Assembly: GCA_014905635.1 (NCBI GenBank)
Contig: JABVCE010000035.1
Coordinates: 186,001 to 250,000 of the forward strand
DNA: 64,000 nucleotides
Source: Scenedesmus sp. PABB004
Taxonomy: Eukaryota
Direction of reading: 5' to 3'
The notes under the pieces were generated by a model. The model made no database searches. It saw nothing but the letters and a program-made list of their open reading frames with translations, and was not told the DNA's origin. Shown here one piece after another: positions 2,681 through 59,782 of the stretch. A program made the translations under genes and the position numbers. Numbering within the stretch: position 1 is the first letter of the stretch; every line of letters starts with the position of its first letter.

Positions 2681-5544
2681 ATGCTGCCCGCTCTCATTTT
2701 CTGCCTCCTGGCCGCCCGGGGCGCCCTGGGCGCGACCCAGGGCGGCCGGCCGTCGCGCCTGCACCTCTACCCCGAGGCAGAGCACTTCTACAACCACGTC
2801 CCGGCCCCGGTGCCGGACAGCCTGCCCGAGGCGCGCTGCCGCCGCTGCTGCTGCTGCTGAAGCCGCCGCCGCCGCCGCCGCCGCCGCCGCCGCTCCCGCT
2901 GCCGTCGCTGCCGCCGCTGCCGCCGCTGCCGCCGCTGCCGTCGCCGCCGCCGCATGCGCGCGCGCGCACGGCCCGCCCAGCCCGCCGCCCTCTCCGCCGC
3001 GCCGCGCCGCGCAGTCGTTCAACTGGTGCGGCCACGATGGCGTCAACTACTGCGCGCCCTCCTGGAACCAGCACATCCCGCAGTACTGCGGCTCCTGCTG
3101 GGTGCACGGCACGCTCTCCATGATCCAGGACCGCCTCAAGATCGCCAAGCTGCGCGCGGGCGACCTCGCGCCGGGTGCGGCCGCACTGCTGCGCCGCCGC
3201 GCGCGCTCGCGCCGCCGTCGCGCGCGTCGCCGCGCCGTGCCGCGCGCGCGCCGCCGACCCGCGCGCGCGCCGGTCCCCGCCGCCGCCGCCTGCCGCCCGC
3301 CGCCTGCCGCGGCGCAGACGTGATGCTCGGCCGCCAGACGCTGCTCAACTGCGCCGGCTTCCACGGCCTCGGCGACGGCTGCAACGGCGGCGAGCCGCTC
3401 GAGGTGTTCAAGTACATGGCCGAGCACGGCCTGCCCGACGAGTCGTGCCTCCACTACGCCGCGACGGTGCGGCCTGGCGGCGACGGCGACGGCGGCGCCG
3501 GGCGCGCCCGCCGCCGACGCCGCCCGCCCCGCCTCGCCCGCCGCCCGGACGACCGACCGTCAATACAACCAACCAACGCCCGCAGGACCACCACGTGTTC
3601 AAGAAGGCGGGCTACAAGGACTGCCCCGCGCGCGGGCGCTGCATGAACTGCATGCCCAAGGGCGGCGGCGACGAGTTCGCGTGCTGGGGCATCAAGAAGC
3701 CCGTCATGTACAACGTGCGCGCCGCGCGGTCGTGCGCGGCTGTGCGTGGTTGTGCGTGGCTGTGTGTGGTGTGTGGTTGTGTTTGGTTGTGCGTGGTTGT
3801 GCGTGCGTGGTTGTGTGTGCGCGCGGCTGGGCGATTGCTGCCGGGCGTGCCGCCGGCTCGGGACCCAAGCGCGTGCGCGCGCGGCGCGCGCGCCGCGCCG
3901 CCCCCGCCGCCGCCCGCGGCCGACCCCCCGCGCCGCCCGCGCCGTTCCCCGCCGCGCCGCGCCGCGAACAGATTACGGCGTACGGCAAGCTCGAGCCCGG
4001 CGCGGAGGCGATGCAGGCGGAGATCCTCGCGCGCGGCCCGATCACGTGCGGCATCGCCTGCCCGGACGACTTCACGTACGCGTACCACTCGGGCAAGCGC
4101 GGCGGTGAGGCGCGGCGGCGGTGCACGGCGCGCGGCGGCGCGGGACGGGGCGGCGCGGCGCGGGACGGGGCGGGCGAGCGCGCGCGCCCGGCCGCTGCCC
4201 ACCGGCTCGGTGCGGTCATGATCCCCTCAGCCGCCCCTCGTCCCCGCCGCCCCCACCCCCGCCGTCCCACCCCCGCCGTCCCCACCCCGCGCGTCGGCCG
4301 CCCCGCCCGGGCAGGCGTGTACGTCGACAAGAGCGGCGACACGGAGCTGGACCACGACATCGAGGTCGTCGGCTGGGGCGAGGAGGAGGGCGGACTCAAG
4401 TACTGGATCGTGAGTCGCGGCGGGGCGGGGCCTCGAGCGGCGCCGCGCGGGGGCCTCGAGGCGGGCGCGAGCGGGGCTCGCGGGCTGCGGAGCCCGCGGC
4501 GGCGCGGGGCGGCGCGGCGGCGGCGCGCGGCCCACGCGCCGCGCCGCGCCCGTGCGCCGCGCCCGTGCGCCGCGCCCGCGTGCGCCGCGCAGGCGCGCAA
4601 CAGCTGGGGCTCCTACTGGGGCGAGCTGGGTTTCTTCAAGGTCGAGCGCGGCGTCAACGCCCTGCAGGTGCGCGCGCGTGGCACGCTAGGGGGCGGGCGC
4701 CGCCGCGGCGCGGCGCTCGCCGGCGCGGGCGCCGCGCCGGCGCACGCGCCGCGCCGGCGCACGCGCCGCGCCGCCGCCACCGCCGACGTGTTGGCTCACG
4801 GCGCGCTGCGCCCGCCACACGCAGATTGAGAGCGGCGACTGCTGGTACGCCGTGCCCGAGTATGAGACCGAGAGCGCGGTGGTGGACGGGGAGCTCGAGG
4901 GCAGCATGTGGGGGCTGCGCCACCCCAAGCACCACCCGCACTGCGACCACGACGACGACGACGCGAGCCCCGAGGAGCGCACGGCCGCCGCGCTCGCGGA
5001 CGACGCGGCCGAGGACGGCGCCGCGGCGGCGGCCGCGGCCGCGAGCGCGATCGCGTCGGGCGTGTCGCGCCTGCTCAGCGGCGCGGTCGTGACGGTGGAG
5101 CTCGAGGCCCGCCCCGCGGCGGCCGGCGTGGAGGAGGCGGAGCAGGGCGAGGGCGTGAGCGAGGCGGCCATCATCGAGGAGGCCGCCGCGGCGGCGCTCG
5201 AGGCGGGCCCGGGCGCGGCGCTCGCCGACGCGCGCGCGGCGGCGGGCGAGCTCGCGGCCGAGGTGGGCGAGGCGGTCGGCGCCGCGGCGGCCGCGGCTGC
5301 GGGCGCGCGGCTCGACGTGCGCGGCGGCGCGCCGGGCGGCGTGTGGGCGGTCGAGGTCGCGCTGCCGCGCAGCGCGGCCGAGGGCGTGGCCGCCGCGGCG
5401 GCCGGCGTGCGCGCCGCCGCGGGCGCGCTCTGGGCGGCGCTCGCGGCGCCGGCCGAGCTGCCCGCGGCGGCGGAGCCCGGCGCGGAGGCGGCCGCGGCGC
5501 GAGTGCTGGGGCGCCGCGTGCAGCCCGCCGTCGCGGTGGTGTGA
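2681..5544 (+). CDS. CTSZ: Cathepsin Z/X-like papain-family (C1A) cysteine protease, 8 exons, with signal peptide and long acidic/Ala-rich C-terminal extension
   Basis: NQHIPQYCGSCW (catalytic Cys with the cathepsin X HIP mini-loop), GCNGG, EILARGPITCGI, DHDIEVVGWG (His), RNSWGSYWGELGFF (Asn). Exons 2681-2830, 3015-3174, 3318-3466, 3586-3714, 3972-4104, 4315-4409, 4593-4667, 4825-5544. Confidence 0.92.
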
Positions 5545-5683
5545 GCGGCGCCCGCGCGCACCGGCCTGCGCCGCGTCTCTCTGCCCTCTATGCATTGGCA
5601 CAATGCTGCTGTGTCTCTCGGCTGGCAAGTCACAACGTGACAGGTAACACCGCAAGGCAACGCACTTGCGCCCGACCGGCTGG

Positions 5684-59200: not shown

Positions 59201-59782
59201 TGGCGGCGCCGGCCAGGCGCCGTCGCCGCTGGCCTGTGTGAATGACTGGGGCGCAAGCTGCTGCTCCGACGCCGCCTCGCCGCCGGCGCGGGCGAGGCTG
59301 GCGTGCAGCTCCGCCACCGCCACTGGCTGCTGCGCCGCGCCGCGGAGCAGCACCGTCTGCCGCGCGCCCGGGCCACGCGCCAGCACCGCCTCGCCCGCCG
59401 CCAGCAGTGCCGGCGGCGGCCCGTCGTCGCCGCCGCTCACGTCCAGCAGCAGGACGCGTGTGGGCACCTGCGGCAGGCGCGCGCGCGCGGCCGGTCAGCG
59501 CCGGGGTCCCACGCGCGCGCCACGGCGCCGCGCGCTCGCCTGTAAGGCCAGCCACTCGAGGCCTCCGTCCTCGCAGCTCAGGTGGGCGGCCTTGCCGCAG
59601 CAAAACGGGATGCCATCAGCGCCGCCGCCGTCGGCGGCGCGGCTCTGCGTCAAGAGCAGCGGGTAGTCGAGGAACTGCAGCGCCAGCGCGAGGTCGAGCG
59701 AGCGTGGCGCGTACGGGAGCGCGCCCGGCTGGAGCAGCAGCCGCTCCACGAAGAACGTGAGCGCGTGCTGCGACGGCGCCAT
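56205..59782 (-). CDS. MAP10-like protein (N-terminal C2-like domain) with long low-complexity tail; one GC-AG intron; apparent 1-nt frameshift near 58860
   Basis: LTFFVERL...LALALQFLDYPLLL...IPFCCGKAAHL resembles the MAP10 N-terminus (AFRLLDFPTL...FGRGKSCLF). The 884-aa GC3-biased ORF includes SYEADFES and YSDVSFLSDED. Confidence 0.55.

Follow-up and report, generated by a model that had tools for sequence, protein, structure and literature searches.

Introns that begin with GC instead of GT are abundant in a 64,000-nucleotide (nt) stretch of the genome of Scenedesmus sp. PABB004 (GenBank assembly GCA_014905635.1, contig JABVCE010000035.1, positions 186,001 to 250,000 of the forward strand; hereafter the window), where they account for roughly 20 to 29% of introns and mostly carry the donor AG/GCGCG (the slash marks the exon-intron boundary, with exonic positions numbered from -1 and intronic positions from +1). 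We consider it probable that these are ordinary U2-type GC-AG introns under strong G+C pressure, in which canonical pairing with U1 is kept by the exonic AG. The organism is a scenedesmacean green alga (Chlorophyceae, Sphaeropleales) with a 39.8-Mb genome in 77 contigs (contig N50 of 1.3 Mb), 7,092 genes and 78.5% G+C, far above the value of about 57% in its relatives (PMC12571836). Every 4-kb block of the window has a G+C content of 74 to 82% (about 80% overall). A previous reading of the window, made from the letters and their open reading frames (the sequence-only reading), had listed 20 GC donors, estimated their rate at about 1 in 6 introns and proposed a relaxed or adapted 5' splice-site recognition.

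Two genes with deposited proteins allow their junctions to be located exactly. An SCS-alpha exon is 100% identical to the 330-residue 'hypothetical protein HT031_006433 [Scenedesmus sp. PABB004]' (P0002), and the first CysRS exon is 100% identical to the 826-residue 'CARS1 [Scenedesmus sp. PABB004]' (P0121). Each deposited protein was placed on the window by exact matching, and all cut points compatible with its sequence were listed. Exactly one GY...AG solution exists per junction, in SCS-alpha (8 junctions) as in CysRS (16), and these unique solutions include all seven GC donors claimed for the two genes (three in SCS-alpha, four in CysRS). Further, orthologues of four genes were aligned to the DNA with a purpose-written protein-to-genome aligner with intron states, run either with GT and GC donors or with GT donors only. 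Forbidding GC donors lowered the spliced-alignment score in 26 of 26 orthologue runs: from 1351 and 1301 to 1119 and 1066 for the two SCS-alpha orthologues (drops of 232 and 235), and by 81 to 109 units for seven CysRS orthologues, 21 to 58 units for 10 ProRS representatives and 38 to 161 units for seven relatives of a CtpA-like protease. The 12 GC-AG introns fixed in this way are as follows.

31643..31757, minus strand: SCS-alpha, CAG/GCGCGC ... CAG, phase 0, 115 nt; in P0002 and with 2 of 2 orthologues.
31204..31408, minus strand: SCS-alpha, ATG/GCGCGC, phase 0, 205 nt; in P0002 and with 2 of 2 orthologues.
30401..30672, minus strand: SCS-alpha, CAG/GCGCGC, phase 0, 272 nt; in P0002 and with 2 of 2 orthologues.
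41558..41650, minus strand: CysRS, CAG/GCGCGG, 93 nt; in P0121 and with 4 of 7 orthologues (the four closest).
40302..40456, minus strand: CysRS, CAG/GCGCGG, 155 nt; in P0121 and with 7 of 7 orthologues.
39057..39649, minus strand: CysRS, CAG/GCGCGC, phase 2, 593 nt; in P0121 and with 7 of 7 orthologues.
37300..37405, minus strand: CysRS, AAG/GCGCGG, 106 nt; in P0121 and with 7 of 7 orthologues.
43399..43557, plus strand: ProRS, CAG/GCGCGC ... TAG, 159 nt; with 8 of 10 representatives, gapless, 21 of 24 flanking residues identical to P0266.
45610..45788, plus strand: ProRS, CAG/GCGCGC, 179 nt; with 7 of 10 representatives, gapless, 16 of 24 identical.
13256..13344, plus strand: CtpA-like protease, CAG/GCGCGC, 89 nt; with 4 of 7 orthologues, gapless, 18 of 24 identical to P0241.
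13492..13646, plus strand: CtpA-like protease, AAG/GCGCGC, 155 nt; with 3 of 7 orthologues, gapless, 16 of 24 identical.
15273..15399, plus strand: CtpA-like protease, CAG/GCGCGC, 127 nt; donor with 5 of 7 and acceptor with 3 of 7 orthologues, gapless, 16 of 24 identical.

The first seven are thus present both in the orthologue alignments and in the deposited protein models. The intron at 41558..41650 sits in a less conserved insertion, and the donor at 31408 is the only one of the 12 without a preceding AG.

In DNA of this composition, the GC donors might be artefacts of hand placement or annotation, the true donors being nearby GT dinucleotides or the supposed introns being retained as coding sequence. 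GC dinucleotides outnumber GT about six-fold in the window (27,328 versus 4,696), and distant or fragmentary orthologues in the CysRS, ProRS and CtpA-like runs yielded many one-off GC 'introns' in poorly aligned stretches; therefore, a GC donor is easily misplaced here. The gene model described below also predicted many weak GC donors, and the deposited CysRS model contains one error. However, conserved residues are lost at all 12 sites when GT alone is allowed, and the five CtpA-like and ProRS junctions align with the closest orthologue without a gap and share 16 to 21 of 24 flanking residues with it. The SCS-alpha junction peptides, which the sequence-only reading had taken as fixed by near-invariant protein sequence, are indeed identical in four other green algae. 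In addition, two further GC introns contain in-frame stops, one soon after the donor at 2831 and the other inside the intron that starts at 29260. Misplacement is, in consequence of these findings, very unlikely as a general explanation. From the gapless orthologue alignments, the deposited protein models and the in-frame stops in two introns, we infer that the GC introns are removed from the mature mRNA.

All 20 coordinates listed previously carry a GC dinucleotide on the strand given for them. An exonic AG precedes 19 of them and ATG the remaining one, and 17 of the 20 read GCGCG, the exceptions being 10848 (GCACG), 59539 (GCGAG) and 299 (GCCGC). In addition to the 12 sites above, three (26360, 2831 and 29260) are backed by Pfam or PDB coordinates, while four (9548, 9100, 10848 and 59539) have partial profile matches at most, together with a home-made coding and signal model. 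The proposal of a probable GC donor at 299 found no support, as the model never picks it and places the donor at 315, which is also GC. The abundance of GC donors is nevertheless confirmed and was, if anything, understated.

The share of GC-AG introns in the four evidence-backed genes (SCS-alpha, CysRS, ProRS and CtpA-like) is 12 of 42, a figure biased upwards because these genes were picked for their several claimed GC donors. A window-wide rate was obtained from a gene model consisting of a three-periodic coding model, donor matrices and an acceptor matrix, which was trained on the 42 evidence-backed introns (30 GT, 12 GC) and 4,827 nt of coding sequence. The coding model told reading frames apart well on held-out genes: the correct frame scored +0.22 to +0.30 nats per base, the other sense frames scored -0.26 to -0.48, and introns -0.23. 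A run over whole strands fused all genes into mega-genes of 206 and 172 introns and was dropped; the window was divided into 11 strand domains by coding-score profile and then modelled. Domain-wise, the model recovered 41 of the 42 evidence-backed introns, missing a 583-nt ProRS intron, and predicted 181 introns, 54 of them GC and many weak. A filter whose thresholds were set on the evidence-backed introns retained 38 of the 41 recovered. In the whole window, 83 predictions passed it, of which 61 were GT and 22 GC. With the evidence-backed introns set aside, 45 remained (35 GT, 10 GC). The latter share, 10 of 45, would be the fairer rate, though it comes from a home-made model. The observed share is thus at or above the earlier estimate of about 1 in 6, whereas the total of roughly 120 introns on which that estimate was based was not reproduced. 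When the donor matrix was trained on GT donors and GC was given a prior of 0.001, the model still picked 18 of the 20 listed sites, 299 and 9100 being the exceptions, and among the 18 were 12 of 12 evidence-backed ones.

The two donor classes differ in context. An exonic AG precedes 11 of 12 GC donors but 13 of 30 GT donors (Fisher p = 0.0055); put the other way, GC is used at 11 of 24 donors after AG and at 1 of 18 after other exon ends. By position, C at -3 is found in 9 of 12 GC versus 14 of 30 GT donors, A at -2 in 11 of 12 versus 15 of 30, G at -1 in 12 of 12 versus 27 of 30 and G at +5 in 12 of 12 versus 28 of 30. With G at -1 so frequent, the earlier statement that GT donors tolerate any exon end was too strong. 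Positions +3 to +5 are GCG in all 12 GC donors. These uniformly read GCGCG, and most of the 30 GT donors read GTGCG, which agrees with the earlier description of the GC donor as the local GTGCG donor with T replaced by C at +2.

Apparent GC donors would also arise if base-calling or polishing of a long-read assembly had gone systematically wrong and T were the true base at +2; the contig number and N50 given above suggest long reads. Such an error would be independent of the exon end two bases upstream, yet a single donor of the 18 without AG is GC, and 13 AG/GT donors of the GTG(C/A)G type are intact. Moreover, the same phenomenon is backed by Sanger sequencing and reverse-transcription PCR (RT-PCR) in another GC-rich alga (PMC4028052). 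We therefore give this explanation hardly any weight.

Complementarity to the canonical U1 5' end was counted over positions -3 to +6, with G at +3 taken as a wobble pair. The mean number of complementary positions is 5.67 for GC donors and 5.93 for GT donors. GC donors lie closer than GT donors to the U1-complementary consensus at -3, -2, -1 and +5, and the pairing lost at +2 is thereby recovered on the exon side. Since most donors of either class have C at +4 and +6, compensation falls almost wholly at -3 to -1 and +5. The same kind of compensation, a better consensus match elsewhere in the donor, has been described for GC-AG introns of animals and plants (PMC1557818). Because GC and GT donors are equally complementary to U1, a change in U1 or U6 need not be invoked.

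We consider it unlikely that 5' splice-site recognition has adapted through changes in the U1 5' end, U6, Prp8, U1 proteins or base modifications that make C at +2 cheap. Such an adaptation would account for a GC share that is very high for a chlorophycean (2.1% in Chlamydomonas; PMC2846911) and for the departure from the U1 complement at +4, where 35 of 42 donors have C. In addition, the difference between Micromonas pusilla and Micromonas RCC299 is explained by neither G+C content nor U1, and modifications or U1 proteins have been suggested (PMC3033335). However, GC donors depend on an exonic AG far more than GT donors do, which indicates that C at +2 is still penalised, and a U1 that pairs with C would predict the opposite. 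In three GC-rich picoalgae (Aureococcus anophagefferens, M. pusilla and Micromonas RCC299), the U1 5'-terminal 11 nt match the consensus; two of the three are rich in GC-AG introns, whose origin was termed an enigma (PMC3033335). The AG dependence thus argues against a C-preferring U1 but is compatible with subtler changes in U1 proteins, RNA modification or U6. Together with the equal complementarity to canonical U1 and the canonical U1 of the picoalgae, it leaves the earlier proposal of relaxed or adapted machinery without support. A variant of this idea holds that the check at +2 has been loosened (by U1 proteins, base modification, U6 or Prp8), so that C would be near-neutral after AG and the lineage would be heading to an Emiliania-like GC majority; this too has a low probability. 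The Rfam and ARAGORN searches found no RNA genes, including snRNA genes, in the 64-kb window.

It is also highly improbable that the GC-AG introns represent a recently spread introner-like element carrying its own GC donor. The fixed donor signature and the short, similar sizes of the introns (85 to 593 nt) would fit such an origin. However, blastn with the low-complexity filter on finds just two matches among the 42 evidence-backed introns, 16 and 20 nt long, the unfiltered matches are simple repeats that do not sort by donor type, and the GC introns lie in genes conserved across green algae.

All 42 evidence-backed acceptors are AG, and 29 read GCAG. Neither a U12-type donor (ATCC at +3 to +6) nor a U12 branch box was found among the evidence-backed GC introns. 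A weak CTGA branch-like word occurs in the last 50 nt of 9 of the 42 intron tails, which are poly-C instead of poly-pyrimidine over these 50 nt, with CCGCC enriched 3.3-fold over intron bodies.

The donor motif by itself is a poor guide. AGGCGCG occurs 84 times and AGGTGCG 31 times on both strands of the window; since the former is common by chance, separate proof is required for each site. On the sense strand, 21 of 49 AGGCGCG but 16 of 20 AGGTGCG occurrences are predicted donors, and therefore the motif does not define a donor. Nor is AGGCGCG depleted in exons, with 1 observed against 1.76 expected from codon shuffles of 4,827 nt of coding sequence.

Under the explanation that we favour, ordinary U2-type GC-AG introns under G+C pressure, mutation or conversion towards G+C would keep turning T at +2 into C. 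An exon end of (C/A)AG combined with G at +3 and +5 of the intron would make C tolerable, since the canonical U1 5' end could then form about the same number of pairs as with a typical PABB004 GT donor. Where the exon ends otherwise, T at +2 would be retained by selection. This would give rise to the share seen in the window, where GC-AG introns with the AG/GCGCG donor make up about one fifth to one quarter of the total. The earlier suggestion of extreme GC pressure as the driver agrees with the composition: codon third positions in the training coding sequence (4,827 nt) are 96.5% G+C and C exceeds T in introns by a ratio of 5.5, both of which point to strong T-to-C pressure. T is kept in 13 of 24 AG contexts and in 17 of 18 others, and C at +2 is therefore still costly. 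The data show the junctions, their dependence on context and the equality of U1 complementarity; that the GC donors arose by mutation and are handled by an unchanged spliceosome is what we infer from them.

Several points weigh against this explanation. A neutral +2 position after AG would, at a C:T ratio of 5.5, predict about 85% GC, while 46% is seen; some selection for T remains, which fits the model without being a test of it. G+C content alone fails to explain the difference between the Micromonas species (PMC3033335), and another factor may exist. The four-gene share carries the upward bias noted above, and the window-wide rate comes from a home-made model that over-predicts (181 introns, with many weak GC donors). 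Finally, splicing is read indirectly, from protein conservation and from deposited models.

The other claimed sites and their introns are listed here with the evidence for each.

26360..26538, plus strand: GC-AG intron of a DEAD-box helicase, CAG/GCGCGT, 179 nt; profile continuity, chosen by the model.
2831..3014, plus strand: GC-AG intron of a cathepsin X/Z-like gene, GAG/GCGCGC, 184 nt; PDB match downstream, chosen by the model.
29260..29373, plus strand: GC-AG intron of an mL46-like gene, CAG/GCGCGC, 114 nt; matches to algal mitoribosome chains, chosen by the model.
9446..9548, minus strand: probable GC-AG intron of a WD40 protein, CAG/GCGCGG, 103 nt; picked by the model even at the GC prior of 0.001.
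9006..9100, minus strand: possible GC-AG intron of the WD40 protein, AAG/GCGCGG, 95 nt; picked by the model with the GC-trained donor matrix.
10848..10992, plus strand: probable GC-AG intron of TRM1, CAG/GCACGC, phase 2, 145 nt; picked by the model.
59468..59539, minus strand: candidate GC-AG intron, CAG/GCGAGC, 72 nt; from the model.
315..432, plus strand: alternative to 299 in the glycosyltransferase gene, CAG/GCGCGC; picked by the model, with a weak acceptor score (2.0).

At 26360, the upstream exon ends at position 85 of the Helicase_C profile and the next exon starts from 86/87. Downstream of the intron at 2831, the exon opens with residue 4 of the mature form of human cathepsin X (1ef7_A), which is proenzyme residue 39. 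Exon 1 ends in LPE, which we take, from the N-terminal motif of the family, to be residues 1-3 of the mature enzyme. The exons flanking 29260 leave a one-residue gap against two solved chains: the upstream exon reaches residue 187/188 and the downstream exon starts from 190 in 7pkt_G, the corresponding values being 104 to 106 and 108 in 8a22_AH. The best solved relative of this mL46-like gene (29047-29700, plus strand), 7pkt chain G, has the depositor title 'Mitochondrial ribosomal protein L17', while its other solved matches are titled mL46. At 9548, a WD40 profile match (4-32) stops two residues short of the donor; for 9100, the GT-trained matrix picks 9220 instead. The exon downstream of 10848 matches the TRM profile from position 117, and the upstream side has no significant match. 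The exon downstream of the 59539 intron is 27 nt long and fails the flank filter, and there is no family match. Pfam searches with the exons on either side of 59539, 6967 and 29260, and with the upstream one at 10848, yielded no usable match.

Four GC-donor introns absent from the original list also pass the filter and are predicted by the model.

6521-6967, minus strand: predicted intron, CAG/GCGCGC.
5957-6022, minus strand: predicted intron, CAG/GCCCGC.
48441-48512, plus strand: predicted intron, CAG/GCGCGC, 72 nt, in frame and equally possible as coding.
56477-56710, minus strand: predicted intron, CAA/GCGCGG.

The expectation that standard gene finders would mis-model these genes was too strong. 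The deposited models use all seven SCS-alpha and CysRS GC donors. On the other hand, the deposited CysRS (P0121) reads through an in-frame 102-nt GT-AG intron at 37766-37867 (minus strand; GAG/GTGCGG ... CAG) that is spliced out by 5 of 7 orthologues; this suggests an annotation error in which a retained intron adds 34 residues. Similarly, a search with the 68-residue CtpA-like exon at 15069-15272 returned 16 proteins, none from PABB004, the best full-length match being from Tetradesmus obliquus (77%). The CtpA-like gene (12600-16000, plus strand) may therefore be missing or mis-modelled in the deposited annotation. Its middle (about 14000-14530) aligns poorly to all relatives.

A scan of metagenomes with SCS-alpha kept 80 loci, nearly all of them uninterrupted matches to about the whole protein and apparently intronless, and gave no information on where relatives have introns. 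Several repeats lie within introns of the evidence-backed genes. The 593-nt CysRS GC-AG intron holds a perfect (GTGCC) microsatellite of 25.8 copies at 39426-39554, and a related 5/10-nt repeat at 30206-30289 in the last SCS-alpha intron is the sole match between the two introns. A (GT)n-like run of period 4 and 31 copies (44907-45030, plus strand) lies within the 583-nt ProRS intron. Elsewhere, a 285-bp unit is repeated 3.8 times with 97% identity at 19422-20511 (plus strand). In the gene model, it resolves into 192-nt exons and 93-nt introns with identical splice sites (AGG/GTGAGT ... CGCAG), and would be a tandem duplication of exon plus intron. The window starts with the 3' part of a family-4 glycosyltransferase gene (1-1242, plus strand), and a gene with a histone deacetylase domain lies at 60541-62184 on the minus strand (Hist_deacetyl, E = 1.3e-27).

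For the annotation of very GC-rich algal genomes, these results mean that GC donors must be allowed, best with a model that depends on the exon end; without them, about a quarter of junctions would be shifted or retained. The split of 11 of 24 versus 1 of 18 provides a quantitative picture of a GT rule eroded only where U1 pairing has reserve. If the check at +2 had been loosened after all, PABB004 would offer a green-algal system, near transformable relatives, for the evolution of 5' splice-site proofreading under composition pressure.

GC-AG introns at high frequency are known from several algae. Their share was given as 39.6% in Aureococcus, 22.2% in M. pusilla and 7.7% in Chlorella, and was tied to G+C content (PMC3033335); in a later preprint, the figures are 14 to 17% (Aureococcus) and about 14% (Pelagomonas), compared with 0.32% for a relative of low GC content (bioRxiv 10.1101/2024.10.30.620910). 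In Emiliania huxleyi, about 60% of donors are GC, as checked by RT-PCR and Sanger sequencing (PMC4028052). Like the GC-AG-rich algae, PABB004 has a high-G+C nuclear genome, AG acceptors and GC donors in at least a tenth of introns, the last two as seen in the window. M. pusilla and Chlorella are, like PABB004, green algae, and the authors of these reports name G+C content as the cause. Unlike those algae, whose G+C content is 64 to 70%, PABB004 is a chlorophycean of 78.5% G+C, for which one 64-kb window has been measured. The dependence on the exon end and the equality of U1 complementarity in the two donor classes were measured here and were not found in the portions available of the reports on those algae. 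Nor was any report of GC-AG introns in Scenedesmus or PABB004 found in the literature covered, the genome's own description lying outside it.

U2-type GC-AG introns of animals and plants similarly start with GC, end with AG and have a remaining donor nearer to the consensus, but they constitute 0.4 to 0.9% of introns (PMC1557818), and the restriction of compensation almost wholly to the exon side and +5 is unlike them. Chlamydomonas reinhardtii, of the same class and with 64% G+C, shares the short GC-rich introns, and U12 spliceosomal RNAs are not reported for it; its 532 GC-AG versus 25,053 GT-AG introns, counted from expressed sequence tags (PMC2846911, Table 2), represent a share about ten times below that in the PABB004 window. 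Since the abundance of GC-AG introns, its link to G+C content and the negative result on U1 are already in print for other algae, PABB004 extends a known pattern to a new lineage and raises no new question, while the rule on exon ends and the matching U1 complementarity of the two classes add useful, still provisional figures from one window. PABB004 is the most GC-rich case of this published phenomenon, and its genome may be the most GC-rich among eukaryotes in which splice sites have been examined.

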